Source: an uncultured Phycisphaerales bacterium (GTDB lineage: Bacteria; Planctomycetota; Phycisphaerae; Tepidisphaerales; Tepidisphaeraceae). Taken from it: a DNA stretch of 64,000 bases. Position 1 is the first letter of the stretch; every line of letters begins with the position of its first letter. The notes below the pieces were generated by a model. The model was not told the origin of the DNA. It did no database searches and saw nothing but the letters and a program-made list of their open reading frames with translations. This document shows positions 543 to 50,244 of this stretch, piece after piece. The stretch spans positions 4,736,001-4,800,000 of the forward strand of contig CAVWVQ010000003.1 of the NCBI GenBank assembly GCA_963758525.1. Direction: 5' to 3'. The position numbers were made by a program, and so were the translations under genes.

Positions 543-1742
543 TTGCGGCGGAGGAAAAAGAAGCTTCGCTCTGGTTCGGCGCCCCTGGTTGGCGTTCTGG
601 TGGACGGTCTTACCGGGTATGGCCGTGCAATTTTGCGGGGCGTAACGCGATATTCAAATCTTCAACGTCGTTGGTTGCTGCACAAAGACCTCAAGTGGTG
701 GTTTGAGGCGGAGGGGCTGAATTGGCCGGATTTCGATGGGATTATTCTGACCGGTGGATCGCCCTCAGTGCTGAAGCAGGCAGTCGCGGACTGCAGAAAC
801 GTTGTGCTTTGTTCCGGAGATGGCGACCCGCAAATTTGCCCCGTGGTTTCCCTCGATGACCATGCGGCGGGCGTTGCGGCGGCCGAGCACTTGATCACTT
901 GCCGGCTCGAAAAGTTTGCGTTCTACGGACTGCAGGCGCGGCTGGTCAGCCGTCATCGGCACGCGGGCTTTAGTCAGACGCTGGAGGGCCATGGGCTGCA
1001 ATGTCTCGTATGCCCTGTAACACCTTCAGTTCAGGATTGGACGACCCATGTCCACCGGCCCGCGCTGGTTAACTGGCTGCGCGATTTGCCAAAGCCGATC
1101 GGGATCATGGCGATCGATGATTTTTTCGCGCACGATCTTGCCGACGCTTGCGTGGAGGCGAACGTCGCGGTGCCGGAGCACGTCGCGATTATCGGGGTGA
1201 ACAACGACGACTTGCTGTGTGAGGGCGCGTGGCCGACGCTGACAAGCGTAAACGCGGATTACTCGCGCATGGGATACGCCGCCGCCCACCTCCTTGAAAA
1301 GCTCCTGGCTGGAACGAAACTGACGGCCGAGGAGCGGGTGACCCGCCTTCCGCCGCTCGGAATTATCCAGCGGCAAAGCACGAGCTTCTCGTCCGTCAGC
1401 GATCCGACCCTTGCAGAAGCATTGAGTTTTATCCGGCAACATGCCTGCGACCCCTGCTCCGTGGAAGACGTGCTCGATGTTGTGCCGGTCTCGCGCAGAT
1501 GGCTCGAACGTCAGCTCTCTTCGCAGATCGGTCACAGCCCCTATGAGGAGATCATCCGGGTGCGCATCGAAACCGCCCGGCGGCTTCTGACGCAATCGCA
1601 GTTCAAGATCGACGATATCGCCCATCGCTGCGGATTTGGTGACATCAAGAATTTTTACGTCGCATTCAAGAAGCTTGCCGGCATGACACCCGCCGCGTTT
1701 CGCCGGACGGGCTCCGCGGGGACGCCAAAGAGTCAGCGATAA
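543..1742 (+). CDS. XylR-type transcriptional regulator (periplasmic-binding-fold sensor plus C-terminal AraC HTH)
   Basis: YGRAILRGV N-terminus, VPEHVAIIGVNND, C-terminal IAHRCGF...FKKLAGMTPAAFR AraC signature. Confidence 0.9.
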   Translation: MRRRKKKLRSGSAPLVGVLVDGLTGYGRAILRGVTRYSNLQRRWLLHKDLKWWFEAEGLNWPDFDGIILTGGSPSVLKQAVADCRNVVLCSGDGDPQICPVVSLDDHAAGVAAAEHLITCRLEKFAFYGLQARLVSRHRHAGFSQTLEGHGLQCLVCPVTPSVQDWTTHVHRPALVNWLRDLPKPIGIMAIDDFFAHDLADACVEANVAVPEHVAIIGVNNDDLLCEGAWPTLTSVNADYSRMGYAAAHLLEKLLAGTKLTAEERVTRLPPLGIIQRQSTSFSSVSDPTLAEALSFIRQHACDPCSVEDVLDVVPVSRRWLERQLSSQIGHSPYEEIIRVRIETARRLLTQSQFKIDDIAHRCGFGDIKNFYVAFKKLAGMTPAAFRRTGSAGTPKSQR

Positions 1743-1760
1743 GAGCGCGGTTCAGAACCT

Positions 1761-1869
1761 GTTTAGCCGCGACGCGCAGCGGAGCGTGTCCATCGGCGCG
1801 TCAGGCAATCTTGGATAATGTCCGCTGAAAACGCGGCTGGACTCGCTCCGCTTCGCGTCGCGGCTAAAC
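1761..1869. repeat. REP/MITE-like inverted repeat element, copy 1
   Basis: 31-bp arms (1761-1791 and 1839-1869, 2 mismatches) beginning GTTTAGCCGC, 47-nt spacer. Confidence 0.85.
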
Positions 1870-2114
1870 GCGGCAAGTCGGGCTGTAAACCGATCGTCTC
1901 TTCGCATCGCATTGGGTGATCCCGAACTGCACCGCCACTGTCGCAAATCGCCAAGACATTGCCGCTAATCACCCTGGTTGCGTTGTTCGTCATGTGAGAT
2001 ATTTCCCCCCGTGGAGGAGAACCGGCAATCAGCATTGGTCCTGGTTCTTCCTGTCGGCCGGTCAATCGAAAATGTCATGAGGCCGCCGGCAACACGCTGG
2101 CGAAGGAGTCGAAA

Positions 2115-5100
2115 ATGGGTCAATCACGCCGAACAACGTCCGCCGTTTCAAACCAGGGGCGGAGCAAGGCCGCGCGTCGCAGCCGACGCCTGCTGGCGAT
2201 GGGGGCGGCGAGCGCCGTCACGTGCGCCGCGGCGACGCAGGCGGCGCGGGCAGCGACGATTTACTGGGATGGCGCCACGGGAGGCTGGGATTCCGTTGCG
2301 AATTGGTCCACGGCACCGGGCGCGACGACGCCTGATCCCTCCGCGGTTCCAGGCAGCGGTGACGACGCCGTTTTCAATATCACCACCGTAAACAGCGCGG
2401 AGACTGTCAGCTTAAACGCCAACCAATCCGCCAGTTCTCTGACGTTCAACAACACCGGAACAACGCTGCTGCAAGGTGGCGGGACCAACCGCGCGCTGAC
2501 GCTTGGGTTCGGGGGAATCACCGTCAACACCGGCGCGGGAGCGGTCACGGTCGGCTCGACTACGGCCAACCAAAACGCGGCCGTTACGTTAGCCGGGAAC
2601 CAGACATGGACCGCGAATTCCACCAGCGGCATTAGCATTTCGAATGTCGTCACGGGGGCCGCATCAACTGCCATCATTCTCTCGCTCAGCGGCACCAGTA
2701 CGTCCAGCGGCTCTTCTGCCAGCGTTATCAGCAATGGGATCGCAAATGGTGCGACTGGCGGGGTCGTTTCGCTTTTGAAAGTTGGATCAGGCACCTGGTC
2801 ACTTCAGACCGTTGTGAGCAATGGCTTTAGCTACAGTGGGAATACGACCGTCAATGAGGGAACCATTCTCATAGACACGGGGCCCAAAAATGTGGGCACA
2901 AGCTTCAACAACTCTTTGGCTGTGCTCGGCGGCGGCACACTATCGTTTTCAGCGAATCTCAGGACGGCTACGTTCAACGGCCTGCAAATCAACGGTGGCG
3001 CGAGTTCGGTCGTGACCAGTGGTACTAATGCCGGCCTTCTCGATTTCGGAGGAACCGCACACAATCAGGGGATCACCCGAAATGTCGGCGGAACTGTAAA
3101 TTTCTTGCCGTCAAACACGCCCATAGATACGACACAAACCAACGTCAATGGAATTATCGGCGGCTATGCCACGGACGGGTCGAGTTGGGCAGTCAGCGCC
3201 GGTACGGGGACCGCATCCGGCGCTATCACGGCTCTAGCCACGGGCGGTTACACCCCCTCCATCGCCAGCACGACGGCACCGGGGGCTGGAACCAACGTCG
3301 ACTTTCAGGCTTCCAACACCACCGCCTGGACGACGCAGGGCGTTAACAGCCTGCGATTCAATACCGGCGCCGCCAGCAGTCTTAGCGTCGACCCCGCCAG
3401 CACTCTTACGCTCGCCAGTGGTGGAATTCTGGTGACTACAGCCGTCGGCAATAACCTCTCGCTGATCACCGGTGGAACGCTTTTGGGGGCGGCGGGCGCG
3501 GATCTGATCATCATTCAAAACAATACGGCCAACGGCCTGACGATTGCCTCCACGATTGGCGATAACTCGACCTCCGGCTTAACCAAGAGCGGTGGCGGCC
3601 TGCTGACCTTGAACAACGCGGCCAACAGCTACACGGGTAAGACCTATCTCAACGGCGGCATCACGAATGTCGCCGCGGATGCCAGCCTCGGCACTTCCCC
3701 TGTCTCCGCAGTTGCAGATCAACTGACGTTCAATGGCGGCAAGTTGCAGCTGGGCGGCACCTTCAATCTCGCGACGAATCGGGGCATCACGCTTCTGGCC
3801 AACGGGGCGACCATTGACACGCAGGCGTTCAACAGCACCTACGCAGGCATCATCGCGGGCACGGCGACCGGCGGCGCCGGCACCTTCACCAAGGCAGGGA
3901 CGGGAATTTTGACCTTGTCGGGCGCAAATACCTACGTTGGCGCAACAACGATAGCGGCTGGCATACTCTCCTCGGCGCCGGCCCTCACTGGCAACAGTGT
4001 GCTCGGAACTACCAGCGCGATCACTTTCACCGGTGGCACGCTGCAATATGGGAACGCCTTCTCGGTCGCGGCGGGCAACGCGCTGGGCGACTATTCGTTG
4101 AAGATCAAGAACAGCACCGGCGCGATCTCGGTGGACACCAACGGCCAGAACGTCACCTACGGCGGCGCGCTGGACAGCAGCAACACCGGCGGCGTGAGCA
4201 AACTGGGGAGCGGCGTATTGACGCTCTCCGCCGCGAACAGCTATTCCGGTACGACCACAGTCTCAGCAGGCACGCTGGTTCTCTCCGGCAACAACACCTC
4301 GGCCACTGGTCCAACAAACGTCACCGGCACTCTTCAATTAGTTGGTGGCGCAAATAGCGGTGTTACGGCGGATGGCCAGACAAGTAGCGCCATCAGTTCT
4401 TCCTCCGCCTTGACGCTGAACACGAATTCTACGCTCCAACTCCGCAGTGACTTCAACGCCACGTTTACGCCATTGAGCATCACGGATGGCACAACGTTGA
4501 ATTTTGACGTGAATAACAATGCTTCTGCCGTCACCGGCAAAACGCTCACTCTCTCCGGATCGCTGGCCATCAACGCGGCCACGATCAATGTCACGGGTGC
4601 AAATGGCTACACGCTGGCTCTCGGTGCGGTCTCCGGACCCGGCCCCACCTTCAACCCAACGACAGCGAATCTCAGCGTCGCGTCCATTACGCTCAGTGGA
4701 AACACCTCAACATTGAATTTCACGGGACAGGGAAATACGACGGTTGCCGGAAACATCCTCACCGCACCGGGGAAGACGGATCCCGTGACCTTCAACCAGA
4801 CGGGCACGGTTACACTCGACGGTGCGGAAACGGTGAATATGGCGGGAAGTTTTGCCAACAAAGTTAACAGCGGCACCGCGGTGCTTAACAACAAGAGCGC
4901 ATTCCTTGCTGCCGTTGCCTTAGGCAACGCGTCGTCAAGCAGCACGGCAGCGGCAACGCTCTTGCTCGGCGGCACAGACTCAGCGGGTCTCACGGGCGGA
5001 ATCACCCTGAATCAGAACATCACTGCCGAGGATACGACCAGCGGAACACTGACCATTGGCGGGCAGAACACCAGCGGCGCCAATACCGTTTCGGGGACGC

Positions 5101-6149
5101 TCACGCTGGGTGCGACTTCCAACACAGGCAAGAACGTCACGCTTGTGTCTGCCACGGGTGGCGAGGTCGACTTTACCAACACCATCAGCAGAAATGGTAC
5201 TGCGACAACCGGCGGCATCACGGTGGGCGACGCCAGCGGTAACTATAACGGGACAGTCAAACTGATGAAGGCCTCCAATACGTATGTCGGCGGGACAACG
5301 ATCTCATCCGGCACGTTGGCCCTGGCGCCCAGCTCCGGCACGAACAATATTTCCGCGTCCAAGTACATCAATGTGGGCAGCGGCGCCGGCTTGAATGTCA
5401 CTGCCGTCAACGGAACCACCAACAACAGTTTCGCATTGGCTGGCACGGGAACCCAATCCGGCAGCCAGGTCCTTGGCGGCAGCGGCATGGTGACCGGAAC
5501 CGTTACTGTTGCAAGCGGGGCCACGCTTTCGGCAGGCACGACTGCGGGAATTGCCAATGTTCCCGCTACCGGTTCGTCGAACATTATCGGCACCCTCTCG
5601 ACAGCTTCCCTGAACTTTAATTCGGGCGGAAATCTCGCTATCAAGGTCTCGGATGGACAGCCGACGGGAACTGCATTTACCGCCGGAACCGACTTCGACA
5701 CCATCGCGGCGCCAGCGGGCGCGCTCACGGTGACCAGTGGATTCAATGTTGAGCTGTTGGCCGATGGCACCGGCACCGGCTCCAAGTCGGTAAATTTTGA
5801 TCCGACCGCAACCTATACTTTCCAAATCGCATCGTTCGCGTCGTCTAGTGGCATCACGGGTTCGGGATCTGGCGACACCGTCTTCCTCACAAGCGGCACC
5901 GCCCAGGCCGCCAGCCCAGGCGTCTCAGGATTGTTCACACTCGATACCAGCAATTTCGTCGCTGCCAATCCCGGTACTTCCGCAGGCAGCTTCTATCTGG
6001 AAGAAATTGGCGGCGGATCGGGCGGCGGATCGCTCGACGTGGTCTACAACTCCGCCCCCGAGCCGGGCACGGCGATGCTCTTCCTCGGCGGGGCCATGCC
6101 GATGCTGATCGGTCGGCGGCGCTGCAGGAAGGTCGCAAACCCTGAATGA
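2115..6149 (+). CDS. PEP-CTERM surface protein with autotransporter-associated beta-strand repeats
   Basis: Signal-like N-terminus, repeated LTKxGxGxLTLxxANxYxGxT motifs, C-terminal APEPGTAMLFLGGAMPMLIGRRR. Confidence 0.9.
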   Translation: MGQSRRTTSAVSNQGRSKAARRSRRLLAMGAASAVTCAAATQAARAATIYWDGATGGWDSVANWSTAPGATTPDPSAVPGSGDDAVFNITTVNSAETVSLNANQSASSLTFNNTGTTLLQGGGTNRALTLGFGGITVNTGAGAVTVGSTTANQNAAVTLAGNQTWTANSTSGISISNVVTGAASTAIILSLSGTSTSSGSSASVISNGIANGATGGVVSLLKVGSGTWSLQTVVSNGFSYSGNTTVNEGTILIDTGPKNVGTSFNNSLAVLGGGTLSFSANLRTATFNGLQINGGASSVVTSGTNAGLLDFGGTAHNQGITRNVGGTVNFLPSNTPIDTTQTNVNGIIGGYATDGSSWAVSAGTGTASGAITALATGGYTPSIASTTAPGAGTNVDFQASNTTAWTTQGVNSLRFNTGAASSLSVDPASTLTLASGGILVTTAVGNNLSLITGGTLLGAAGADLIIIQNNTANGLTIASTIGDNSTSGLTKSGGGLLTLNNAANSYTGKTYLNGGITNVAADASLGTSPVSAVADQLTFNGGKLQLGGTFNLATNRGITLLANGATIDTQAFNSTYAGIIAGTATGGAGTFTKAGTGILTLSGANTYVGATTIAAGILSSAPALTGNSVLGTTSAITFTGGTLQYGNAFSVAAGNALGDYSLKIKNSTGAISVDTNGQNVTYGGALDSSNTGGVSKLGSGVLTLSAANSYSGTTTVSAGTLVLSGNNTSATGPTNVTGTLQLVGGANSGVTADGQTSSAISSSSALTLNTNSTLQLRSDFNATFTPLSITDGTTLNFDVNNNASAVTGKTLTLSGSLAINAATINVTGANGYTLALGAVSGPGPTFNPTTANLSVASITLSGNTSTLNFTGQGNTTVAGNILTAPGKTDPVTFNQTGTVTLDGAETVNMAGSFANKVNSGTAVLNNKSAFLAAVALGNASSSSTAAATLLLGGTDSAGLTGGITLNQNITAEDTTSGTLTIGGQNTSGANTVSGTLTLGATSNTGKNVTLVSATGGEVDFTNTISRNGTATTGGITVGDASGNYNGTVKLMKASNTYVGGTTISSGTLALAPSSGTNNISASKYINVGSGAGLNVTAVNGTTNNSFALAGTGTQSGSQVLGGSGMVTGTVTVASGATLSAGTTAGIANVPATGSSNIIGTLSTASLNFNSGGNLAIKVSDGQPTGTAFTAGTDFDTIAAPAGALTVTSGFNVELLADGTGTGSKSVNFDPTATYTFQIASFASSSGITGSGSGDTVFLTSGTAQAASPGVSGLFTLDTSNFVAANPGTSAGSFYLEEIGGGSGGGSLDVVYNSAPEPGTAMLFLGGAMPMLIGRRRCRKVANPE

Positions 6150-6158
6150 AGTTGCTTC

Positions 6159-6225
6159 CGTGTAGCCGGCGAGCATGCCCGCCGATTGACCCGCGGGAAC
6201 GGCGAGCATGCTCGCCGGCTACACG
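6159..6225. repeat. GTAG-type REP doublet (REPIN-like)
   Basis: 26-bp inverted arms CGTGTAGCCGGCGAGCATGC(C/T)CGCCG with 1 mismatch; each arm is GTAG followed by a palindrome. Confidence 0.8.
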
Positions 6226-6266
6226 AAACGCGACGTTGATCATGCACTCGCGACAAGGATTTGTTT

Positions 6267-7331
6267 ATGACCCGCCAACGCGGATTATATATTCTCGATC
6301 CGAGCTCCTTCAGGCTGATCTACGGGCCTGAGGAACAACAGGACATCGCTGCCCTGGTGGACATCATTGCTCCGCTCCTCTCGGCCCGCGAGATCCGCGC
6401 GAAGCCGGAACTGCTCACCAACACGGACGTGATCTTTACCGGCTGGGGCGGGCCGCTTTTGAACGAGGCATTCCTCGCATCCGCCCCGCGACTGAAGGCG
6501 GTCTTCTACGGGGCAGGATCTGTCGGGCCGATCCTGACGCCTGCGGTCTGGGAGCGCGGCATTGTTCTGACCAGCGCCCTGGAAGCCAATGCGATTCCGG
6601 TGGCGGAGTACGCGCTGGCCACCATCCTCTTTTCTCTCAAGCACGGCTGGAGACTTGCCCGGCAGACGAAGGAACACCGCCGCCATCCCGATCGCAACCA
6701 CGTTCCCGGCTGCTACGGCAGCACCGTCGGGCTCGTCTCGCTCGGAGCCATCGCCAGGAAACTGGTCGAGCTGTTGCGGCCATTCGATCTGAATGTGCTG
6801 GCGTATGACCCGTTCCTCGCGGAAGAAGATGCCCAAGCACTCGGCGTAGAGCCAGTATCGCTTGCGGAGTTGTTCGAGCGGTCTGACGTGGTCTCGCTGC
6901 ACACGCCGTCTTTTCCCGAAACGCAAGGCATGATCACGGGCGAACAGCTTGCTTCGATGAAGCCGGGGGCGACGTTCATCAACACGGCCCGGGGCCCGCT
7001 GGTGCGCGAGGACGAGATTATTGAGGTGCTCTCCCGCAGGCCGGATCTGCAGGCGGTGCTGGATGTGACAATCGAGGAGCCACCCGAAGCCGGCTCGCCG
7101 CTATACGCTTTGGACAATGTGCTGCTCACGCCGCACATTGCAGGTTCTGCCGGCCCGGAGTGCCGGCGGATGGGTCGGTATATGGTGGAGGAGCTGAAGC
7201 GATATCTTGCCGGTCAACCGCTAAAACACGCATTGAAACAAGAGTCGGTGATGCGGACGTCGCATCGTCCCGTTGGAATCCCTGTCCGGCCGCCGCTTGG
7301 CAGTGCCGAGCATGCGCGCACAGCCGTTTAG
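6267..7331 (+). CDS. D-2-hydroxyacid dehydrogenase family protein (copy A)
   Basis: GLVSLGAI Rossmann motif, INTARG, LDVT..EP, TPHIAG; ATG at 6267 chosen over TTG at 6261. Confidence 0.9.
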   Translation: MTRQRGLYILDPSSFRLIYGPEEQQDIAALVDIIAPLLSAREIRAKPELLTNTDVIFTGWGGPLLNEAFLASAPRLKAVFYGAGSVGPILTPAVWERGIVLTSALEANAIPVAEYALATILFSLKHGWRLARQTKEHRRHPDRNHVPGCYGSTVGLVSLGAIARKLVELLRPFDLNVLAYDPFLAEEDAQALGVEPVSLAELFERSDVVSLHTPSFPETQGMITGEQLASMKPGATFINTARGPLVREDEIIEVLSRRPDLQAVLDVTIEEPPEAGSPLYALDNVLLTPHIAGSAGPECRRMGRYMVEELKRYLAGQPLKHALKQESVMRTSHRPVGIPVRPPLGSAEHARTAV

Positions 7332-7361
7332 TTTTTCCTTCAGCCCCAGGTCGTCGAGGAG

Positions 7362-9806
7362 ATGGGGAACAGGCAGCTCTTTGTCACCCGTACTCATATC
7401 ACGTCCGCGTGGTTTATGACGGAAACGCAGCGGAATCTCCTCCTTGCCGTGTTCCTGGCGCTGGTCGTGCTTAGGTCGGCCGCCGCGCAAGGCGGCGACG
7501 CCAAACTCACGGACTCCGCGGCCCTCGACACCGTCGTCCTCGGAGATGCCAGCTCGGAGCACGAGCACGGTGTGACGTTCGAACAGAGCGACGTGATCCG
7601 CGGGGGGTTGGGTGAGCCGGCGCGGCGGCTGCTGCCGCGCGAGCCCGTCTCGTTCGAGGGTGGCACGGTCTCCTTCACGCTGAAGGTCGACCCGCGGCGG
7701 CAGAATTACGTGACGGTCAAACTCTGGGGCTCGGACAAGGGCGCGGTCCTCGGAAGGCTCGTGCTTTTCGCCGATGGGCTGCAGGTCGGATACCGCCGCG
7801 AGGCCGACTACGACGTGCTGAACCAGGCCGACGACGAGGATGAATGTCCAGGGGGGTTTCTGTATCAGACCGTGCCGCTGCCTGGGGCCTTGACGCATGA
7901 CAAGTCGAGCATCGATCTGAAGATCATCTCGCTGGGCTCGATGTGGTATTACGGGACGACGTTTGCTCAGTACCAGAAGGATTTGAAGGAGCCGACGCGC
8001 GGGATCTACCGCGTTTACACCCACACCGCGACGCGGTTCGTGCCAGACGCATCGGAGCGGCAGGGTGCGTGCGAGCCACGGGGCGTGCGGCCCGGGCCGG
8101 GCGAGGAGGTCATCGCCCAATCGAAGCGGTTGGTGGACGGGCGGTTGGCGAAGTCGCTGGCGGTGCCGCCGGGAGCCCTTTCGAGCGATCCTAACAAAGG
8201 TCGGTTCGCGCGGATGCTGCTGCTGTCCGAAGCATACAACACGCCGTGGACCACGGCATACCACGACGCGCGGGCGATCGCCCAGATCGTCAATGACGGC
8301 GACGCGATCGCGGCCGACGCGGCGCGTGATCCGCACTTCGTCGCCGAGGACTGGTCCGGGGCCGGGCCGATGGGCGAGGCGGTGATGCGGGTCTGGCCGG
8401 CGATCGGAAAGCGAATGGGCGAATCGGTCGAGGGAGACTCCCCGGACAAGGAGGCGCGCGGCCGGGCGTGGGCAAACGCGCCTGCGCGCGAGCGTCGACT
8501 ACTGGCGGACGCATCGCCGCGATTACACGAATCAGTCAATGATCGTCGACCGCAACATCTACACTGCCAACCGCGCGCTGCAACTGATCGACGCGAGCCG
8601 GGCACTTCCCGAGTCGAAGGCGCTGCGGTACGTGGAGGAGGCGGTCGGCATCGAACCGTGGCTGGGCAGCGACCCGCTCGACGGCGGCGCCGTCGGAGGT
8701 TCTGTCGAGGACGCCCCCGGCAAGGGGATGCCCAAGCCATTCGGTACGCACTATTACCTCGTGACGCGCAAGGGCCTGACGCGCGAACTCGGCTGGGTGG
8801 GCACTTACGGCGAGACGATTCTCCACTTCACGCACGACATCGCTATCCTGACCGGCGATGAGCGCATCCGCGAGCAGCTCCGCAAGCTCGAGTTGGCGCG
8901 GATGTATTTCCGCTACCCCGGCGTCGATGCCGACGGCTACCGTTGCATGAAACTCGCCAGCGAGATCGATAACCGCACGGCCCATTACCCGCTGTCCGGC
9001 GCGGCCTACACGGCGCCGGGCATCCGCGAGGAGTGGTGGATGGACGTGCCGGCCCTGCTTGCTGATGACCCGGTCTCGATTGCGCGGCTTTCCAGGCGCT
9101 CGCAGACCACCAGTACTTCGCCTACGTCGAAGGCCGCCTCAGCGATCCCGACATGCTGGGGATGATGCGGAACGTCGATGAGTATGCAAAGGTGAAGACG
9201 CTGCCGCCAAGCGCGTACCGCCTGCCGATGACTGATGGCCAGCCCGACTTTGCCTTCGCCGACGAGGAGGATGCCGTGCTGGCGGTGAAACACGGCGACA
9301 CGCGGCTTTTCGTCAACCTCTACTACCGCGCCGAGCGCGGTGTGAACGGCGTAGCGCGGCTCCTGGAGGTCACGCCGACGATCACCCGCATCGCGACGGT
9401 GCGCACGGACTTCCAAGTCGTCTCCAGCGGCCAGACGTATGCACGGCCGGACTGGATCGACGCGATACGCAATCCCGGTCATCCGCCGCCGGGCGAGGTG
9501 CTGCACCAGGCCTGGGCCGGGGAAAAGCTACCGATCGCGGCCCGCCCTGCCGACGCAATGCTCCCAAAGTACGGCGATTGGGGCCCGTTCGTCGGCAAGG
9601 CATCGTTTTACCGGCTGCGCTACGGCGACTATCTGATCGGGATGAACTGCAGTGAGGAGAACACCTACAAGCTGGACGTTCCCACAGGCCGCGGGAAAGC
9701 GCTGGACCTTGTGTCCGGCAAGGTTCTCGCGCTCGACCGGCCTGTGCGGGTCGGCCCCCTTTCGACACTCGTACTTTATCTGCCGGAACGCACGGGGGGA
9801 CGATGA
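7362..9806 (+). CDS. Large secreted hypothetical protein, probably carbohydrate-active; broken by two frameshifts (~8480, ~9085)
   Basis: Signal peptide; three consecutive overlapping ORFs join into a continuous protein (..WANA/LRASVDYWRTHRRDYTNQSMIVD.. and ..AAFQALADHQYFAYVEGRLSDPDMLGMMR..). Confidence 0.65.
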
Positions 9807-9874
9807 AACCACGAAATTCCTTGTTCGCTGCGGTACGATTTCACGTGTTCTCAATTTAGTATGGGAGCCACACA

Positions 9875-10774
9875 ATGACTTATCGCCGCGACCAATACCA
9901 ATCATGCAGCGAGCACTATTCCGCGCGGTTCAGCCTCCCTGCGTTGAGCAGGCGCAACGGGGGATTTACGCTCGTTGAACCGCTGGGCGTCATCGGGATG
10001 ATCGCACTGCTTGTGGGGATACTTCTGCCGGCCCTGGCCACCGCCAGACAAGATGGCCAGCAGGTTGCCTGCATGAGCAATCTCCGACAGATTGGGCAGG
10101 CGATGACGATGTACGCCGGAGATTTCAAAGGGTCTTTCCCGCCGCTCTGGACCGCGTACGACGGCGGCGTTCATATGGTATACCCCGGCCTCTGGGGGGC
10201 ACTAGAGAATTATGGGATCCCCCACAGCAGCAGCGTGCGCGTCTGTCCGACGGTCGCGGGACTTCTTTCGCCGCCCGATGTCTTCAACGGGGCTGATCCG
10301 ACGGCACTCTATAGCTACCGGTACAACATTATCGTGGGAGGGCAGGCACAATGCGGGAGCTTTCCCGGCCCCACCACATCCGGCATCTACCAAGTCGCAC
10401 GGCCCTTGAAGTTTACGGACATCCAGGGCCGCTTTGGAAATTCGGTCGCGATCGTTGTTGACTTCGCTCAGTTGTATTTCGAGGAAGCGCAGAACCTGAA
10501 CGGGTCTACCGTCGCCAACCAGAAGAACTACTGGTGGCGGCCCCAGACGGCAGGCACCACGCCGGACAAGGTCCTCACTACCGGCGGCGGACATCCGAGC
10601 ATTCACGACAACTCCGTCGTCCATTTCGCCAAGATCAACTCCCTTGGACAGGAATATGGGAAGAACAACGTTCTTTTTGTCGACGGCTCCGTTCAGCCAA
10701 TCGACCTGACCATCACCAGCACTTTTGGGTCGATCTGGACTGGCACCACGCCGACCCCGGAGCAAAGCCCGTAG
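9875..10774 (+). CDS. Prepilin-type N-terminal cleavage/methylation (DUF1559-like) protein, copy A
   Basis: [40 protein letters not shown]-terminal NVLFVDGSV. Confidence 0.85.
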
Positions 10775-11312
10775 CAAACCAAAGTCAGGCACACGACGCC
10801 TGAAGACTGGAGGACCTGCTTTGCGACTCAAACGAGCTCTCAATCGTAATGCGGCAGTGGCAAGCACGATCGCCGGTGCGGTGATTGCGCTGGGCGGTTT
10901 CCTCATCATCCGCCAGGTCGCGAGTGGTGAAAACTCCGGAGCCAAGGCATTCTTCAGCACCGACGACGGGAAGACCTGGTTTACCGACGAAATGACCAAG
11001 CCGTTCCCATTTGATCACCACGGCGCGCCGGCGTATCGCGTCCAAGTTTTCCGATGCGGGAACGGGCCACCCTTTGCAGGCTTCCTTGAGTGCCTGCCGA
11101 GCGAGCTGATTGCCCGAGTGAACTCCGCGGGATCGAGCTGGCAGGCGCACTATGCGGTGCTGCTATCCGTTTCAGACGAGATTCTGGTGAAAAGGCCAGG
11201 CGATTCCGATTGGACAAAGCCAGGACAGAAGAAAGAGTATAAGAGGATCACCAAGCCCGTCTGCCCCGACGGCACCAAGCAGGAAGTGACGCCGGTCAAT
11301 CCAAATCAATAG
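10725..11312 (+). CDS. Small single-TM hypothetical protein ('DDGKTWF' family), copy A; true start probably downstream
   Basis: One hydrophobic helix followed by [27 protein letters not shown]; paralog at 38226. Confidence 0.75.
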
Positions 11313-12373: not shown

Positions 12374-12718
12374 CGAGTCCTCGGTTCGTTTCTGCTTATT
12401 CTAACCATCGGGCGCCCCGTTGCGTTGCCGTCGCTGCGGAAATTTACTGGCGGATATTAGTTGCGGCACCGGAGTCATCGTCGGTCGAAATTCTTCGCCT
12501 TCCTCGTCCTTCCACCCGCACTCACGATAAATGTGGAATCTGCAAGGCGAACATGGATAATTCACATTGACCGAACCATTGCGATATGCGGCGTCGCGCC
12601 TTCATCTGTTCCCCAAGGGCGCTGGAAATCGAGGAGACACTTGGACTGAATTGCTATTTTCGTGTCTTTTGCGTTTTTTTTTGTGGCCACTCCCTTCTGA
12701 ATTTATTTGAGGCTGCCT

Positions 12719-20672: not shown

Positions 20673-20676
20673 TGGG

Positions 20677-20832: not shown

Positions 20833-20878
20833 ACCAGCGGCATTGCCCTATGCGACGTTTGAACAAATAAGCAAATCG

Positions 20879-27200: not shown

Positions 27201-27589
27201 CCGCCCGAGTACGCGTCAAATCGAGCGCGACCGAGCCCGTAGTCATCAACATGACGGAGCTTGTTCAGAGTGTATTGTTTGAAAAGGTCGATCGCGCCCG
27301 CGTAGTCCTGGTGGTCCATCAGCCCGCGGATCTTTTGCAGTGCGGCCCATCGATCCGGCCGTCTGAACTCCCGCTGATCCCACGTCGCGAGAAAGGTCAT
27401 ATCCAGCAGTTCATGCGCAGCCTTGTCGACATTCGCAGGCGAGTTCCGCTGGGGGAAGCTTCCCGAACGCTCCTGCAAGTGTTCCGGAGCCGGCAAATTC
27501 GCGGGATCTGGCGCTGCGGCACACAGCGACTCGCGGGCAACGAGGAGCAGAAATAACGCAGCGGAGATTCCGGAAGTCTTGATTTTCAT
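24281..27589 (-). CDS. Secreted heparinase II/III-like protein with chitobiase/Fn3 and PA14 domains (gene B); frameshifts near 26345 and 24600
   Basis: Own signal peptide MKIKTSGISAALF at 27589; MRAGW, IRYTCDGSDPT, GLHYEYFAG; collinear with paralog gene A. Confidence 0.7.
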
Positions 27590-30500: not shown

Positions 30501-30901
30501 TGCAGCCATTTCCAACGCGGCTCTCCGATTGACCAGGGGTCCATCCGGGCAACGCTCACTCCGAACCCCCCCTCGCCGTCGCACAGGCGCAGTTTTTCGA
30601 GCGAGTATCGCTTGAAGTCCTCCAGCGCGGTGGTGTAGTCCTTGTTGTCGAGCTCGCCGCGGATTCTGCCGAGCCGCTCCCATCGCCCGGGACGGTTGAA
30701 ATCGCCTGGTCCCCATTGGCCGATCCACGTCAGCGCGAAAAGCTCGCGCACCGCACGCTCGACGGCGACGGGTGAATGGCGATCGGCGAAATGAATTTCG
30801 GATTCAACCGGCGCGGCGGGTGGTGACCCGGCACGCAGCACGCCGCCGGTAGTGACCAGAAGAAAAAGCGTGGGGATGACTGTGGAATTCTTTATCTTCA
30901 T
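27586..30901 (-). CDS. Secreted heparinase II/III-like protein with chitobiase/Fn3 and PA14 domains (gene A); frameshift near 27705
   Basis: Signal peptide; QRAGW, IRFTTDGTAPT; alternate frame gives terminus ..IWTGNTPDLRVDGPGIETRPIPSEWLCR* with ATGA overlap onto gene B. Confidence 0.7.
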
Positions 30902-32115: not shown

Positions 32116-33186
32116 TCAATTGGTGATCTCTTCTGCGTCCACGATTGAAGGAGCGATCAGCACCTTCTCGTAGGGGTCGGCGGGGTGCTTGATGCGCCAC
32201 AGCAAACGCTCGATAGCGCGTTTGCCGACGTAATCCGCGTGAATATCAACTACGGCTGGTGCCGGATGAAGGCCGGTGAGGTAAGGCCGTTCGTTGTTGC
32301 AGGTGATGATCTGAACATCCTGTCCCGGATGCAGTTTCCTCTCCAGGAGCAGGCGGTAAACGCTGGCGGTAAAGACATCCATGGCCACGAATAACGCGGT
32401 GGGGCGCGGGGTTGCGGCGACGAATTGATCGAGGAGCGTGGCGAGGCGGGATTCGTTGACCTGGTTTTCACTTCCGAGAAGCTTCGCGTCGACCAGCTTC
32501 AACACGCGCCCGCCAGCGTTTTCCATGGTGACTGCGAACCCAAGGCTGCGACGGGCACGCGTCGCTTCGCCGACAACATCGGTGTTGAGCACGTCGGTGA
32601 TCATCGCGCACTCAGTATGGCCGCGTTTCTGCAGGTATTCGGCGGCGATTCTCCCCATCAGCAGGTGATTGGGGAGAATGTGATCGCCGACAAAACGAAC
32701 CGGATTGCCCATGGCCCACACCGCGGGCGTCTTGAGCAACTCTTGGGGGAACTCATCCTCCGGCTCAACGCCGAAAAGCACCAGCCCGTCCCATCGAGAT
32801 TGCTGGAGCATCGCGCGGACGCCGTCGTAGCTGGGCACGTGCCGGACGATGAGGTTCAGGTCGCGGCTTGCCAATGCGGCGCCCACACCGTGGATGACCG
32901 ACGCGTAGACCGGCTGGTGATCGAATATCCACTTCAGATCGCGATGGCCCAGCAGAAGCAGGGCAATGTTTCCTTCTCCTGCCGCGAACCGCATACGGCT
33001 CTTGGGGCCGCGCCGGCGCTCGACGGGCAGCGGCACGTACTGGAGCTGAGCCATCGCCTTGCGGATTGCCTCGACGTTTGAAGCGGCCACTCCCGGAACA
33101 TTATTGATGACGCGTGAGACGGTTCCTTTGCTCACGCCCGCCACACGGGCGACGTCGAGGATTGTGATCGAGGGTGCGGAGGCCAT
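32116..33186 (-). CDS. LacI family transcriptional regulator
   Basis: TILDVARVAGVSKGTVSRVIN HTH plus sugar-binding domain; ATG at 33186. Confidence 0.92.
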   Translation of the reverse strand: MASAPSITILDVARVAGVSKGTVSRVINNVPGVAASNVEAIRKAMAQLQYVPLPVERRRGPKSRMRFAAGEGNIALLLLGHRDLKWIFDHQPVYASVIHGVGAALASRDLNLIVRHVPSYDGVRAMLQQSRWDGLVLFGVEPEDEFPQELLKTPAVWAMGNPVRFVGDHILPNHLLMGRIAAEYLQKRGHTECAMITDVLNTDVVGEATRARRSLGFAVTMENAGGRVLKLVDAKLLGSENQVNESRLATLLDQFVAATPRPTALFVAMDVFTASVYRLLLERKLHPGQDVQIITCNNERPYLTGLHPAPAVVDIHADYVGKRAIERLLWRIKHPADPYEKVLIAPSIVDAEEITN

Positions 33187-33526
33187 TGAAAATACGCTCT
33201 GTCTAGAATTTAATTTCGCGACCCGCAAGAGCGTCCAAGTCTTTCCCGAAACTCACTGCCCCTCACGATAATTGGAATTATAGCAGTAAGTTCATCTAAA
33301 TGCAAACTATCTCTTAACTGCTTAAAATCATTACGCTTATCGACGAGATAAGATCGCTAAACGCGTTGAAATTTTAGATTCACGGGCACACCGCAAGGTC
33401 ATCACTCCGGCTTGCGCCGACAAATTCCAAAAAATTCGGTTTCTTTCGTTGCAATTTAGAATTAATAAGATATTCTTTGGAATTGTTACGTTAAGTCACT
33501 TAGAATAACTACGCGAGAGGAAACCC

Positions 33527-35872
33527 ATGGCACGCGAAGTGATCCACATCCGGGGAACTGCGGAGCAGGCCGAGGTCCGACAAACCAAGAGTGCGCGAAA
33601 GCCTCAAAGTCGGCGTACGAAGCACGCCGCGCTACTGAGGGTCGCGACGGCGGTCGCCCTGCTTGACGGGATTTCCGCGACGATGGCCAGCGCCAGCACG
33701 CTGACATGGGACAGCGACGCGATGCCAGGGAACGGCGTCACCGATGGCAGCGGGACCTGGGACACGAGCACGTTGCAATGGTACAGCGGCAGCAGCGACT
33801 CCGCATGGAACAATAGCAACAATGATACTGCTGTCTTCGGGAACGGCGGCTCCGGCGGCACGAATCCTTATACGGTCACCCTCGGTGCAGCGATTACCGT
33901 TGGCGGGCTCACCTTCAATACCAGCAGCAGCGCAAGCAGTTACACGATCGCCGGCGGCGGCAACACGCTCACGTTCGGCGGCAGCAGCACCAACGACCTT
34001 GTTACTACCAATGCCAATGCCACGATCAGCGCGCTGCTCGCGGCCACGGGCAGCGTGACAACCCTCCAGAAGGCGGGCTCGGGAATTTTGGCACTCAGCG
34101 GTGGCGGCACGTTTTCCAACGCCATCATCAGCGGTCCCAGCACGGGTTCCCTGTTTATTACCGGTGGCACGTTCACTGTTGGTGGCATGAACTTTTATGA
34201 TGCTGGCGGCGACAACAACACCACTGATGGCTTGGTGTTTCAAACAGGAGGCGCGGTCAGTACCTCGAAAGACTGGGATGGAAGGAACAAGACTTCTTCG
34301 TATGACATCACCGGCGGAACGTTGACGGCGACGACCCCCAATCGCATCCGGGATATCGGGACTTTCAACGCCAGCGGCAACGCCACTGTAACCTTTAACA
34401 CTCCTGACGCGCGCATTTCCAGCGACAACTGGAATGGCGCCCTCTCAATCAACGGCAGCGCATCGGTCACGTTTTCGACCAGCGGCTACATTGACTTGAA
34501 CGACAGCGGCGGCACCGGTAACACCGCCTCCGGAACCATCAATCTTAACGGAGGAACGCTGACCACTATCGGCTTTAGCTACGGCGGCGTCTCCACCACC
34601 ACCGGCGTCATCAATTTCAATGGCGGCACCCTCAAGGCATCCAGCAGCCAGGGGACGTCCTTCTTTAGCGCCAACGCCTCTGTTACGGCCAATGTTTACG
34701 GGGGTGGGGCCATCGTGGATACGAATGGCCAAACTAACAACACCATTTCCCAAGCGCTGCTCGGAACCACCGGCAATGGCGTTGATACTGTCACCGTGAA
34801 CGCTGGTGGCAGCTACACCACGGCTCCAACCGTCACCTTCAGCGCGCCGACTTCCGGGACGACCGCCAAAGGTTACGCGTTGATCAATACCGCTGGGGCG
34901 GTCACGAGCATCGTCATCACGAACCCCGGAAGCGGCTATACATCGATGCCGACCGTTACGTTTGGTTCAGGTGCGGCCACCGCAACATCCACCGCCAATC
35001 TCAACAATGCCGGCGGGGGTCTGACGAAGTTAAACGCCGGGACCTTGACGCTCTCGGCCACGTCTAACACGTATACGGGAGCGACGATCATCAGTGGTGG
35101 CACGCTGGCGCTCTCGGCTTCTTCGACGAACAACATCTCCAGTTCCAAGGCTATCACGGTCGGCTCCGGCGCAATCCTCAACGTGTCTAACCTCTCCAGC
35201 GGCACAATCGCTCTCGCCAGCGGGCAGGCGCTCGGCGGCGTGGGCACCGTCACGGGGGCGACCATCGTCAGTTCCGGCAGCACGATTTCCGCGGGCACCA
35301 GCACTACCCTCAGCACCGGCACGGCTAACACCACCGGCAAGCTCACCACCGGCAACGAGAAATTCGCCGCGGGGGGAACCTACGCCGTCAAAATCAATGA
35401 CGTCACGGGCACGTCGGGCAATGCCACGGGATGGGACGACCTTTCGATGGGAACCCTCGACGCCACCGCGTTGGGCTCGAGCACCACCTTCGCCGTCAAG
35501 CTCTCCAGTTCCGGCGCGTCTGCGGCGCACTTTGACAAAACCAGCAATTACACCTGGGTGATCGCCAACATCACCACCGGCTCGCTTCCAATTACCGGTC
35601 CAATGGCTGTCACCAACAGCTTGGGCAACTCCGCTGGAACCACGGCATCGAGCCTCTTTACGCTGGATACGAGTGCCTTTGTTGCTAACAACCCGGTCTT
35701 GGGATCGGGATCGTCGTTCTACCTGGAAGCGCTCGGATCGGTTGGCGGCAGCGAGTCGCTCGAGATCGGCTACAGCGCCACGCCGGAGCCGGGCGCCGCG
35801 ATTCTCGCCTTCACTGGCGTCGTGCCGATGCTGCTGGGCAGGCGGCGACGCGCCAAATCTAGTATTGTCTAA
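33527..35872 (+). CDS. PEP-CTERM surface protein with autotransporter-associated beta-strand repeats (copy B)
   Basis: LTKLNAGTLTLSATSNTYTGAT; C-terminal ATPEPGAAILAFTGVVPMLLGRRRR. Confidence 0.9.
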   Translation: MAREVIHIRGTAEQAEVRQTKSARKPQSRRTKHAALLRVATAVALLDGISATMASASTLTWDSDAMPGNGVTDGSGTWDTSTLQWYSGSSDSAWNNSNNDTAVFGNGGSGGTNPYTVTLGAAITVGGLTFNTSSSASSYTIAGGGNTLTFGGSSTNDLVTTNANATISALLAATGSVTTLQKAGSGILALSGGGTFSNAIISGPSTGSLFITGGTFTVGGMNFYDAGGDNNTTDGLVFQTGGAVSTSKDWDGRNKTSSYDITGGTLTATTPNRIRDIGTFNASGNATVTFNTPDARISSDNWNGALSINGSASVTFSTSGYIDLNDSGGTGNTASGTINLNGGTLTTIGFSYGGVSTTTGVINFNGGTLKASSSQGTSFFSANASVTANVYGGGAIVDTNGQTNNTISQALLGTTGNGVDTVTVNAGGSYTTAPTVTFSAPTSGTTAKGYALINTAGAVTSIVITNPGSGYTSMPTVTFGSGAATATSTANLNNAGGGLTKLNAGTLTLSATSNTYTGATIISGGTLALSASSTNNISSSKAITVGSGAILNVSNLSSGTIALASGQALGGVGTVTGATIVSSGSTISAGTSTTLSTGTANTTGKLTTGNEKFAAGGTYAVKINDVTGTSGNATGWDDLSMGTLDATALGSSTTFAVKLSSSGASAAHFDKTSNYTWVIANITTGSLPITGPMAVTNSLGNSAGTTASSLFTLDTSAFVANNPVLGSGSSFYLEALGSVGGSESLEIGYSATPEPGAAILAFTGVVPMLLGRRRRAKSSIV

Positions 35873-35903
35873 ACGTTGATGTTTCGCCTCATTGGAGATT
35901 GCG

Positions 35904-37007
35904 ATGAAACGCCTCAAGGGCATTTATGTTCTGAGCCCTGACGCCTGGAGCTTGTGCTACGGCCCAGACGAGCAGCGCGACATCGCGCGATGGGCGGACA
36001 TGCCCGGCGGCCCGCGGACGGCCGCGGACGTCGCGAGTCATCCCAAAGTCCTGGCCGACGTGGACGTGCTCTTCTCGGGCTGGGGCGGTCCGCGCATTGA
36101 CGACGCGTTTCTGGAGGCGGCCCCGCGTCTTGGGGCGGTCTTCTATGCCGCCGGTGACATGCGAGACATTCTGACTCCCCATGTCTTCGAGCGTGGAATC
36201 GCCGTCAGCAGCGCTAAGTCCGCCAATTCTCTGCCCGTTGCCGAATACACTCTTTCCTTTATTCTCCTGTCGCTGAAGCATGCGCTTCCGCTGGCGCGCC
36301 AGACGCGAGCGGGACGGCACTTCCCGTCGGCAAACGGCGCGGCCGGTTGTTATGGCAGCACCGTCGGGCTGGTCTCCCTCGGAGCGGCGGGGCTGGCGGT
36401 GCTCGATCAGCTTCAGCGGTTTGACTTGCGCGTCCTGGCGCACGATCCATTGCTCACCCCTCAACGTGCGCGGCAACTGAATGTCGAATCGGTGTCATTG
36501 GAAGAGTTGTTCCGCCGGGCCGATGTGGTGTCGGTTCACACTCCGTGGCTTGCGGAAACGGAGGGTTTGATCAGCGGCGCGCATCTCGCTTCGATGAAGC
36601 CGGGCGCAACCTTCATCAACACCGCGCAAGGCGCGGTGGTGCGCGAGCGGGAAATGCTGGAAGTGCTCGCGGCCCGTCCCGACTTGCAGGCCGTCCTGGA
36701 CGTCACCACGCAGGAGCCGCCCGCGGCTGATTCGGCGCTCTATACGCTGCCGAACGTACTGCTCACCCCGCACATCGCCGGTTCCACCGGCCCTGAGTGC
36801 CGGCGGATGGGGCGGTATATGGCCGAAGAGCTGGCGAGATATGCCGCCGGCGAGCCCTTGCGCTGGCCCGTCAGGCCCGAGCCGTTGCTGCAAGTGACGA
36901 TCGCGCGGTCCGTCAAAGAGCACCCGGGCGCAGCGCGATTGCAGGAACATTTCGAGGGAGGCATTGTGCCACCGGAGCCATCGTCGTCGCGCATGCAATC
37001 GGCATGA
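35904..37007 (+). CDS. D-2-hydroxyacid dehydrogenase family protein (copy B)
   Basis: Close paralog of 6267-7331; GLVSLGAAG, INTAQG, TPHIAG. Confidence 0.9.
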   Translation: MKRLKGIYVLSPDAWSLCYGPDEQRDIARWADMPGGPRTAADVASHPKVLADVDVLFSGWGGPRIDDAFLEAAPRLGAVFYAAGDMRDILTPHVFERGIAVSSAKSANSLPVAEYTLSFILLSLKHALPLARQTRAGRHFPSANGAAGCYGSTVGLVSLGAAGLAVLDQLQRFDLRVLAHDPLLTPQRARQLNVESVSLEELFRRADVVSVHTPWLAETEGLISGAHLASMKPGATFINTAQGAVVREREMLEVLAARPDLQAVLDVTTQEPPAADSALYTLPNVLLTPHIAGSTGPECRRMGRYMAEELARYAAGEPLRWPVRPEPLLQVTIARSVKEHPGAARLQEHFEGGIVPPEPSSSRMQSA

Positions 37008-37073
37008 CATTTGGAATGGGGCGGTTCGATCAGAAGATCCGCACTCGTCCAACACCTTCGCGAGGAGTATCAA

Positions 37074-38204
37074 ATGAAGACCCATCACGTTCTGAATAGA
37101 ATCAAGCGATCCGGTTTCAACATTCTCCGAGAGCATAAATCCTCTCGGCGGCCCCTACATGGTTTTACCTTGGTGGAACTGCTGGTTGTCGTCGGGATTA
37201 TTGCTCTGCTCATCGCCATCCTTCTCCCCGCACTGGCCAGCGCCCGACGGCAGGCCAATCTCGTGGCTTGCTCGTCAAACATGCGCCAGATTGGTCAGGC
37301 CCTGTTCTCGCATGCCACCGACCATCATGGTTTCATGCCGTACGCAGGTCCGCTGATGGACCCCACCTCCGGCAACGTGGACAACCCGACGCCCGCCGCC
37401 TTGCATGACAGCACGATGAGCAGATACGATTATTATTATCATAACGCGAGCACCGTTAACAAGCTCCTGGTGATGCCTCTGGAAGGAGCTTTGGTTTCGT
37501 ATCTAGGGGGGACCATCCGAACAGACACCCTCGCAAACATGTGTAACGACCTGGGCGTCAACAACAGCGGTACCTACCCGCTCGGAACAAGTACTGTAAA
37601 TGCGTGGCCCACCGTCCGCAGAGTGTTCACCTGTCCCACGGATACGAGCTATGAGAACACGGGGGTCCCTCCGTATGGAATCAGCGCGACGAAATACGTG
37701 AATGGGGCTCCGGATGGGGAACAGTACTCCAGCTACGCCTTCAATTACGATGTGTTCGGACTGTCCACCAATACAAACTCCGGTTACGGCAATAATTGGG
37801 CCTACAGCTTTAGCTACGCGCGAGCCGGCGGGGATATCTCGAAAGTTTCTCGTTCGTCCGAAACGGTTCTCTTTACGGAAATGGCTTTCAATCAACCTCT
37901 GGCATCAAGTTCCAATCAGATGCTCTTCTCGGCATCTCCGGGCATGACACTATACGACGCGTTGGTCGGAAATACTTCCGGCCATCCCTGGTCCGGCGCG
38001 GCCGGCGACCCGAACGTCTTTGCGATGCTGAATTATCGACACAGAACGGTAATGAACGTTTTGTTCGCCGACGGGCATGTCGAAGCCCTCGGCATTCCGA
38101 CGATGGTCCTTGATGCGTCTTTCAACATCGTCACAACGGGCATCATGGCTAATGCTCCAAACTCAGGTGACCTGAAGCATGCATATCTGTGGCCTCCGCA
38201 ATGA
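37074..38204 (+). CDS. Prepilin-type N-terminal cleavage / H-X9-DG (DUF1559-like) protein, copy B
   Basis: [58 protein letters not shown] before ATG 37074. Confidence 0.92.
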
Positions 38205-38225
38205 CGGAACGACGGAAGGTTTGCG

Positions 38226-38762
38226 GTGAGGAAGTACATGAACATCCGCGAAAAACTGAACCAGTATAGAGCGCTGTCACTTCCAGTCGTTGGAGTGGTG
38301 ATTGCGATCGCGCTCGCATTGATTTTCCGGCAATTGCGTGAAGCCGCGCCACACAAACCGGGTTTGCCGTCCAAGTCCTTCTACTCCGACGACGACGGAA
38401 AGACCTGGTTCCTTGACGAATATATGAAGATCACGCCGTTCGATCATCACGGTCGGTCCGCGTACAAGGTGGTGGTCTATCGGTGCAATGGCAGCACGCC
38501 GGCTGTCGCATATCTGGAGAAATTCTCGGATTCGCAGCAGGCGGCCTTGCAGGAGATTTCGCCGGCGGATGTCCGTGATTACACGGGCAGGTTCATGTCT
38601 TTTCAGGAAGCCCTGGACGTCAAGAAGCCGGGAAGCAATCGCTGGCTGTCCGTCGAGAGCAGAGGATACATCGATGCGAAGATCGTGACCTGCCCGGACG
38701 GGTCCGTGAAAGGACTGACGTTTGTATCGCCGCTTGATCCGGACACCGGGGCGTCGGGTTGA
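38226..38762 (+). CDS. Small single-TM hypothetical protein ('DDGKTWF' family), copy B
   Basis: [27 protein letters not shown]; paralog of 10725-11312. Confidence 0.8.
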   Translation: MRKYMNIREKLNQYRALSLPVVGVVIAIALALIFRQLREAAPHKPGLPSKSFYSDDDGKTWFLDEYMKITPFDHHGRSAYKVVVYRCNGSTPAVAYLEKFSDSQQAALQEISPADVRDYTGRFMSFQEALDVKKPGSNRWLSVESRGYIDAKIVTCPDGSVKGLTFVSPLDPDTGASG

Positions 38763-50243: not shown

Positions 50244-50244
50244 G

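Follow-up and report, generated by a model that had tools for sequence, protein, structure and literature searches.

A pilin–DDG gene pair recurs across the genome

A 64,000-nt stretch from an uncultured Phycisphaerales bacterium (GenBank assembly GCA_963758525.1, 6.47 Mb and 90.9% complete; contig CAVWVQ010000003.1, positions 4,736,001–4,800,000; hereafter, the window) contains two loci, A (543–11312) and B (32116–38762), in which the gene for a DUF1559 prepilin-type protein is followed by one for a small single-transmembrane (TM) protein with the stretch DDGKTWF, here called the DDG protein. The loci belong to a real, repeated, and conserved locus type that resembles a polysaccharide utilization locus (PUL), yet is not a SusC/SusD PUL, and that includes an unnamed partner family. 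Judging from gene context, about 18 clusters of this type, two of them in the window, may tentatively be read as glycan-responsive surface-capture loci built on modular pilins, a reading that we regard as quite possible but short of probable.

The genome encodes 28 DDG genes, which form 19 clusters under a 7-kb gap rule, and not the two copies of a module proposed in an earlier note on this DNA. A pilin gene was found in 18 of these clusters, a PATR/PEP-CTERM gene in 15, a regulator of the cluster's own in 14, and a D-2-hydroxyacid dehydrogenase gene in only seven, indicating that the core consists of the PEP-CTERM, pilin, and DDG genes and that the dehydrogenase is optional. A prepilin gene preceded the DDG gene on the same strand in 23 of the 28 cases under each of two distance rules, against a background of 7.9% of the genome lying within 5 kb of a prepilin open reading frame (ORF). 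The genome has 64 prepilin-like ORFs, a number that includes some fragments or ordinary pilins, and 20 of its 25 PATR/PEP ORFs were within 5 kb of a pilin. The order PEP-CTERM–dehydrogenase–pilin–DDG occurred in five copies, one with only a PEP-CTERM stub and one with an inserted gene, and in another copy cut by a contig end. At G000:C3:4333368–4333616 (L016), a dehydrogenase–pilin–DDG–DDG unit is preceded by a PEP-CTERM gene reduced to its final 83 codons, and a truncated DDG gene is present as a remnant at L018. Tandem arrays of three pilin–DDG pairs were observed at L007:8736–14331 in this genome, with an extra DDG gene in front, and separately at L197:4891–9566 in a genome of another family.

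All 11 FecR-like genes follow an extracytoplasmic function (ECF) sigma factor gene and have a DDG gene less than 9 kb away; the 10-kb surroundings of DDG genes make up 6.3% of the genome. A LamG domain is present in two of the FecR-like proteins and an NPCBM domain in one. Five of the seven LacI/XylR-type regulators over the cut-off were located at pilin/PEP-CTERM clusters. The absence of TonB/SusC genes claimed for the window held, since none of the seven TonB-receptor matches (PF00593) in the genome falls there; none is within 29 kb of any DDG gene, and the nearest is about 30 kb away. SusD (PF07980) had no match in this 90.9%-complete genome, whereas the control search in B. thetaiotaomicron was positive, so that the description of the loci as SusCD-free also stands. 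Genes for processing and assembly are present in trans: two exosortases (PF09721), two prepilin peptidase matches (PF01478), and 11 T2SSE ATPase matches (PF00437) all lie outside the DDG clusters.

Loci A and B are old paralogues

Family scans and the sequence itself placed every gene of the order shared by loci A and B where the earlier note had put it (Table 1), and the named homologues of their proteins belong to Tepidisphaeraceae or Planctomycetota, which makes Tepidisphaeraceae the likely family of the bacterium. Some details of that description changed. A regulator is present at both loci, XylR-type at A and LacI-type at B; however, it is co-directional with the other genes at A and divergent, on the minus strand, at B. 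The extra secreted gene in locus A also exists, as one gene of about 780–860 aa whose reading frame is broken twice in this assembly. The sequences of the PEP-CTERM proteins do show a PEP motif, a hydrophobic stretch, and a basic tail, but no PEP-CTERM model of Pfam or NCBIfam matched at E ≤0.01, and their “beta-helix” character is inferred from the PATR repeats. Around locus B, the glycosidases and the sodium:solute symporter (SSS) were recovered (a GH5-like and two GH2 genes). Evidence for the “lyases” around locus A is weak: neither the inserted gene nor the gene at 12707–16300 had a Pfam match to a carbohydrate-active enzyme (CAZyme), and the one pointer is a feature match between an intact paralogue of the inserted gene and an auto-named heparinase II/III cluster.

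The core genes are paralogous with differing regions, as had been stated: the dehydrogenases share 58% identity, the DDG proteins 34%, the PEP-CTERM proteins about 30%, and the pilins 47% over the first ~100 aa only. A recent duplication was considered and rejected, because the dehydrogenase of A is nearest to other paralogues (75–77%) rather than to that of B (58%) and because the DDG copies lie far apart in a quick tree. By sequence identity (30–58%), A and B are evidently old paralogues. No clear operator was found in the two intergenic regions of the loci, and a PDB sequence search with PEP-CTERM protein B gave no match.

Table 1. Positions of the genes at loci A and B and in their surroundings within the window
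Feature	Position	Strand	Evidence or remark
XylR-type regulator: LacI-like sugar-binding domain and AraC helix-turn-helix	543–1742	+	PF13377 (Peripla_BP_3), PF12833
1344-aa PATR-repeat PEP-CTERM-like protein: signal peptide, C-terminal PEP motif, hydrophobic stretch, basic tail	2115–6149	+	PF12951, TIGR02601, sequence
D-2-hydroxyacid dehydrogenase A, uncharacterized subfamily	6261–7331	+	PF02826/PF00389; Arg, Glu, His motifs intact
Secreted ~780–860-aa gene in three frames (two frameshifts in this assembly)	7362–9806	+	tblastn with intact paralogue
DUF1559 prepilin-type protein A, G↓FTLVE leader	9875–10774	+	PF07596, 29.6 bits vs. cut-off 23.3
DDG protein A: single TM, Asp-box motif, two conserved Cys	10821–11312	+	TTG start behind GGAGG site
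Unrelated genes between loci A and B: DUF3500, FAD oxidoreductase, GNAT, DUF2721, phosphoketolase	11327–23281		
Secreted 1197-aa protein near locus A, unassigned family	12707–16300	+	Sole Pfam match FixG_C (Ig-like)
Tandem heparinase II/III-like genes with Fn3/PA14-like tails, frameshifted, upstream of locus B	24547–30901	-	Weak PF07940, PF16889; self-match
LacI-family regulator, divergent from locus B	32116–33228	-	PF00356, PF13377
781-aa PATR/PEP-CTERM-like protein	33527–35872	+	PF12951, sequence
D-2-hydroxyacid dehydrogenase B, Gln at catalytic Arg position	35892–37007	+	
DUF1559/H-X9-DG prepilin B, likely start 37074	37011–38204	+	PF07963, TIGR02532; model; fold search
DDG protein B, likely start 38238	38226–38762	+	
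Sodium:solute symporter (SSS)	38952–40766	+	PF00474
GH5-like + PA14 protein, GH2 beta-mannosidase-like, second GH2	40797–46816	+	

Modular pilins and their small partner

The DDG protein was modeled as a short amphipathic helix, a TM helix (residues 11–35), and a compact alpha/beta domain, with a mean predicted local distance difference test (pLDDT) score of 90.8. Two Cys residues were conserved, one in 39 and the other in 38 of 46 rows, which suggests a domain with a periplasmic disulfide; a lipoprotein was rejected, there being no N-terminal lipobox Cys. In a PDB sequence search, the DDGKTWF stretch, which we take to be an Asp-box, matched repeat segments of sialidases and of a BNR protein, mostly over this short stretch. 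No Pfam or NCBIfam family matched the protein, no PDB match at E ≤0.001 was obtained for the model with Foldseek, and the rows of a wide VIA search were filled by the TM helix.

The pilins carry a class III prepilin signal, G/A↓F-x-x-x-E followed by about 21 hydrophobic residues; prepilin A has an atypical Pro at +6, and prepilin B scored 21.9 bits with TIGR02532, over the cut-off of 16.3. Prepilin B was just under the family cut-offs (PF07596, 22.0 with a cut-off of 23.3; TIGR04294, 18.6 with a cut-off of 19), and its close homologues are named PF07596/H-X9-DG. Its model (pLDDT 80.7) has a 50-residue alpha1 helix (residues 33–83), a pilin-like core, and a large insert. A fold search gave 21 chains with Z ≥2, of which 19 were type IV pilins or pseudopilins, and the alignments to pilins ran from the N-terminal helix through the C-terminal strands; with Foldseek, the best E-value was only 0.6. 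The model is compatible with a pilin core into which about 230 residues are inserted, although the scores are weak. A DUF1559 subfamily close to pilin B had a full-length match in all six relatives searched, including one that lacks DDG, and may be a conserved core pilin.

Between 19 cognate pairs, the similarities of the pilin heads and of the DDG proteins were correlated (rho = 0.33, p = 0.0004), and the nearest neighbors agreed in 11 of 19; linked duplication alone could also yield this correlation. A complex prediction for pilin B with DDG B gave a score of 0.10 and a mark of 0.32 and was counted neither for nor against an interaction.

The dehydrogenase is distant from solved enzymes, its best matches being phosphoglycerate dehydrogenases (E = 1e−35). 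The copy in locus A retains the nucleotide-binding fold and the Arg-Glu-His triad, as defined for D-2-hydroxyacid dehydrogenases (PMC6303947); no subfamily described there could be assigned to the enzyme. Of 140 family genomes, 20 had a match to the subfamily represented by loci A and B, but neither genome of the same genus did (E ≤1e−90). Among 36 of 37 loci of relatives (L046, L066, L071–L105; one without a called dehydrogenase ORF was left out), a pilin lay within 3 kb of the dehydrogenase in 18, a PEP/PATR gene was near it in nine, and a DDG gene lay within 5 kb in only four, in varying order. Together with its presence in only seven of the 19 clusters, this led us to reject the five-gene order as a conserved unit, as which the earlier note had presented it. 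A XylR-type gene was within 1.5 kb of the dehydrogenase in 14 of 35 relative loci scored.

Carbohydrate-active genes near the modules

To compare the density of glycoside hydrolase (GH) and polysaccharide lyase (PL) genes, ORFs of 230 aa or more were taken from 19 module regions (L001–L019; 133 ORFs, with profile-detected core genes excluded) and from 18 random regions that kept a distance of 10 kb or more from every module gene (208 ORFs). In the module set, L006 lacks a DDG gene and that of L018 is truncated; the count left out L020, the window, and 17 extra proteins. GH/PL families were counted by hand at E ≤1e−9 in both sets, with split genes counted once. The enrichment suggested by the earlier note was seen per ORF, GH/PL genes being about 3.5-fold denser near modules (20/133 versus 9/208; Fisher p = 0.001), but it was not significant per region (8–9/19 versus 5/18; p = 0.3–0.5). 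Because clustered ORFs are not independent, we count the enrichment as moderate. All four PF05426 lyase-like matches were at pilin/PEP-CTERM modules, three of them near modules that contain the dehydrogenase.

The inserted gene of locus A (window 7362–9806) and the gene at L002:17045–19627 represent an unannotated secreted family of about 780 aa, with 949 homologues among 7995 candidates scored and about 60% identity across Planctomycetota, Verrucomicrobia, Armatimonadota, and Sumerlaeota. The inserted gene had no Pfam CAZyme match, PDB searches with a single sequence and with a profile of its family were empty, and the family profile matched neither of two lyase-like neighbors. The Atlas neighbors of its intact paralogue, by feature match, included Bacteroidota clusters and one auto-named heparinase II/III family. 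The secreted proteins are possibly a new lyase family, and we flag both this family and the dehydrogenase subfamily as candidate new carbohydrate enzymes.

Distribution among relatives and metagenomes

DDG genes were present in 17 of 18 genomes of the same family and in 78 of 250 genomes of the class, mainly in two families (31 of 35 genomes each). In a phylum-wide survey in which 14–17 candidates were scored per genome, four of 200 genomes had one, and all four belonged to the same class; by these sequence surveys, the family has been found only in this class. The DDG profile matched 1987 clusters (50% identity) at E ≤1e−10 among 1.84 billion representatives. In a quick tree of 92 DDG rows, the family had expanded independently in several lineages.

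Of the 56 DDG genes at 48 metagenome loci, 36 were evaluable, and 27 of these had a pilin directly upstream, under a rule that favors positives and with some loci that look like the same organism; the other 20 genes were dropped because of short upstream sequence. The PEP-CTERM–pilin–DDG order occurred in nine of the metagenome loci and in two other genera (L085, L176, L190), and the exact order with the dehydrogenase occurred in metagenome locus L106. The order is thus not private to this genome. The earlier note had named two outcomes that would refute its reusable module, an order confined to this genome and a lack of enrichment beside CAZymes, and neither test refuted it. In four genomes of the family with multiple copies, a pilin preceded 15 of 25 DDG genes (L188 counted by hand), and in other families a pilin preceded eight of 19; these genomes were picked partly for copy number. 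As the pilin-then-DDG order recurs in other genera and in metagenomes, it is not a private duplication. Among the neighbors in relatives, of which 102 of 105 were scanned, were GH10, GH2 with GH53, GH16, GH18, SSF, aldolase, esterase, sulfatase, and LacI genes. A FecR-like gene was present at four metagenome DDG loci.

A proposed role in glycan capture

For polysaccharide uptake by planctomycetes and for the role of DUF1559 proteins, these loci name candidate genes: a variable-head pilin, an unnamed partner family, a surface protein, and regulators that point to an inducing sugar. Tepidisphaerales are among the GH-richest members of a phylum whose CAZyme clusters are functionally uncharacterized (PMC11131199), and DUF1559 is described as a large family of unknown function (PMC2754498, PMC10632474, PMC4807772, PMC5352709); the available parts of those four papers contained no link to CAZyme loci or to a partner gene. 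A term search of the main text of PMC11685898 found no mention of pilin, DUF1559, or PEP-CTERM. No description of the pilin–DDG arrangement was found in the literature searched, which comprised main texts only, with most subscription journals outside its scope.

If the clusters serve glycan capture, a dedicated regulator would sense a sugar signal and switch on the PEP-CTERM protein, the DUF1559 pilin, and the DDG protein. PilD would cleave the prepilin, which might be built into type IV filaments, either at the tip or as a minor component, and an exosortase would anchor the PEP-CTERM protein. The DDG protein, through its putative periplasmic disulfide-bonded domain, could stabilize or deliver its own pilin. 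The PEP-CTERM protein, variable-head pilin, and DDG protein would then jointly capture one polymer on the cell surface and present it to the neighboring glycosidases and lyases, SSS or major facilitator superfamily (MFS) carriers would import the released sugars, and the dehydrogenase may have as its substrate a keto or hydroxy sugar acid that is connected with the XylR-type regulator.

Four known systems come nearest to these loci. Like the SusC/SusD PULs of Bacteroidota, the loci cluster a regulator (ECF/FecR-like or LacI-type), surface proteins, GH/PL genes, and an inner-membrane symporter, in many copies with varying cargo; unlike those systems, they have no SusC-like receptor, SusD was not found, and their repeated core is PEP-CTERM, prepilin, and DDG. 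The pilins share with the DUF1559/H-X9-DG family (PF07596, TIGR04294, TIGR02532) the class III signal, the conserved N-terminal helix, the H-X9-DG end, and about 60 paralogues per genome, but a third of the pilins here are followed by an unnamed single-TM Asp-box gene. The lectin pilin PilC of S. sanguinis with its stabilizing PilA offers a precedent (PMC9934059) for a pilin core with a large added module and a small adjacent partner; in our case, the ~230 extra residues lie inside the modeled pilin core and match no solved lectin, and the DDG protein has no prepilin signal. The PEP-CTERM proteins resemble PATR proteins of the exosortase system in their signal peptide, PATR repeats, PEP motif with TM and basic tail, and the exosortases in the genome, but standard models did not score and here they are tied to pilin genes.

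A bolder scheme, which we regard as speculative and rather unlikely, is that Phycisphaerae swap SusC/SusD for an exchangeable pilus tip: each glycan locus would supply a lectin-headed DUF1559 pilin, a DDG chaperone, and a PEP-CTERM protein, and shared retractile type IV filaments would pull the polymer into the periplasm. Dextran has been seen bound to pili-like fibers (PMC5394234), and a long-standing hypothesis, restated in PMC12078418, has pili act as planctomycete “fishing rods”; if true, the scheme would give this fishing rod its genes.

Several results weigh against a role in glycan capture. In this genome, only 22 of the 64 prepilin ORFs are followed by a DDG gene, pilin–DDG pairs without adjoining sugar genes exist (L004, L017, and, in another genome, L197), the GH/PL excess is not significant per region, and the seven TonB receptors could import oligosaccharides in trans. 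No carbohydrate-binding module or domain was detected in the pilin and PEP-CTERM proteins, and the best fold match of pilin B was weak (Z = 4.7, below 5; root mean square deviation, 3.6; 120 aligned residues). The catalytic Arg of the dehydrogenase is replaced by Gln in B, where an assembly error is possible, and in the C1 paralogue, and is retained in the metagenome orthologue of B (L106). In a sample of relatives taken mostly as the best hit per genome, a pilin was directly before the DDG gene in only three of 21 cases, and a lone DDG copy stood beside hldE in six of 20 loci; none of the 18 FecR matches in 10 relatives was within 10 kb of a DDG gene. Six relatives had 52–111 pilin matches and 0–14 DDG matches, and one relative, 98% complete, had 52 pilins and no DDG match. 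These counts, with the 22 of 64 pilins here, led us to reject DDG as an obligate partner of all DUF1559 proteins. Lone DDG genes were observed beside hldE in the same family (L022, L023, L027, L029, L031, L036, L181) and beside ribAB in another family (L040, L202–L206), the latter also counting against the capture role; the source genome has no DDG gene beside its hldE. Such a lone DDG may be a general-purpose copy.

Cargo-specific export or display is the main alternative, which we judge rather unlikely. In a type II secretion system (T2SS), the DUF1559 protein would serve as a minor pseudopilin that selects the substrate and the DDG protein as a membrane-bound chaperone, and the two would export or display the giant PEP-CTERM protein encoded with them and secreted enzymes. 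The proximity of 20 of the 25 PATR/PEP ORFs to pilins, the presence of the pseudopilins EpsG and PulG among the fold matches of pilin B, the several T2SSE ATPases, and the topology of the DDG protein all agree with this, and membrane-associated T2SS chaperones reportedly exist in Acinetobacter, which we counted in its favor. However, the tandem pilin–DDG arrays at L007 and L197 have no PEP-CTERM gene, the order and divergence of DDG track the pilin, and searches by sequence and by fold revealed no resemblance between DDG and a solved chaperone.

It is also conceivable, but in our view distinctly unlikely, that the genes have no coupled function, and that the large PEP-CTERM, DUF1559, and DDG paralogue families gather with CAZymes in variable islands, their linkage reflecting joint duplication and a common control of surface variation or adhesion instead of glycan handling. 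The lineage-specific DDG expansions, the lone DDG genes beside hldE or ribAB in many genomes, the non-significance of the CAZyme excess per region, and the remnants (the 83-aa PEP-CTERM stub and the truncated DDG) would all be expected, and linked genes co-diverge even without binding. This explanation accords less well with a pilin-then-DDG order found in at least two families and many genera, with the age of the A/B paralogues (30–58% identity), or with the concentration of sugar-type regulators and all four PF05426 genes at the loci.

FecR-like anti-sigma groups are described as mostly tied to TonB receptors (PMC7826278). Here, all 11 ECF/FecR-like pairs lie at DDG loci, and TonB receptors are more than 29 kb from any DDG gene; together with the FecR-like genes at four metagenome DDG loci, this could suggest that the pilin head detects a polymer and relays via DDG to the anti-sigma protein, in place of the transducer that depends on TonB in Bacteroides and E. 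coli. We consider such a relay very improbable, given that loci A and B use XylR or LacI regulators, that FecR genes are absent near DDG in the 10 relatives, and that three of the anti-sigma proteins bear a lectin-like domain of their own.

Other features of the window

The 1197-aa secreted protein near locus A had no Pfam CAZyme match and no PDB sequence match, and a PDB sequence search with the heparinase-like gene gave nothing. GidA (L166:11193–13247) and LepA (L168:17676–19521) are each broken into two ORFs in control regions, which points to indel errors in the assembly, and the frameshifts in the window may therefore not be real. An element of about 110 nt with 38-nt inverted arms lies at 1761–1869, between the XylR and PEP-CTERM genes, and again at about 17147–17264; related copies at many dozens of sites on five contigs suggest that it is like a repetitive extragenic palindrome (REP) or a miniature inverted-repeat transposable element (MITE). 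At the end of the window (49134–64000) is a defense island with GmrSD-like, HEPN, DEAD/Lhr helicase, BrxD, PglZ, DUF6079, metallo-beta-lactamase-fold, and DUF7008 genes, which presumably resembles a BREX system.

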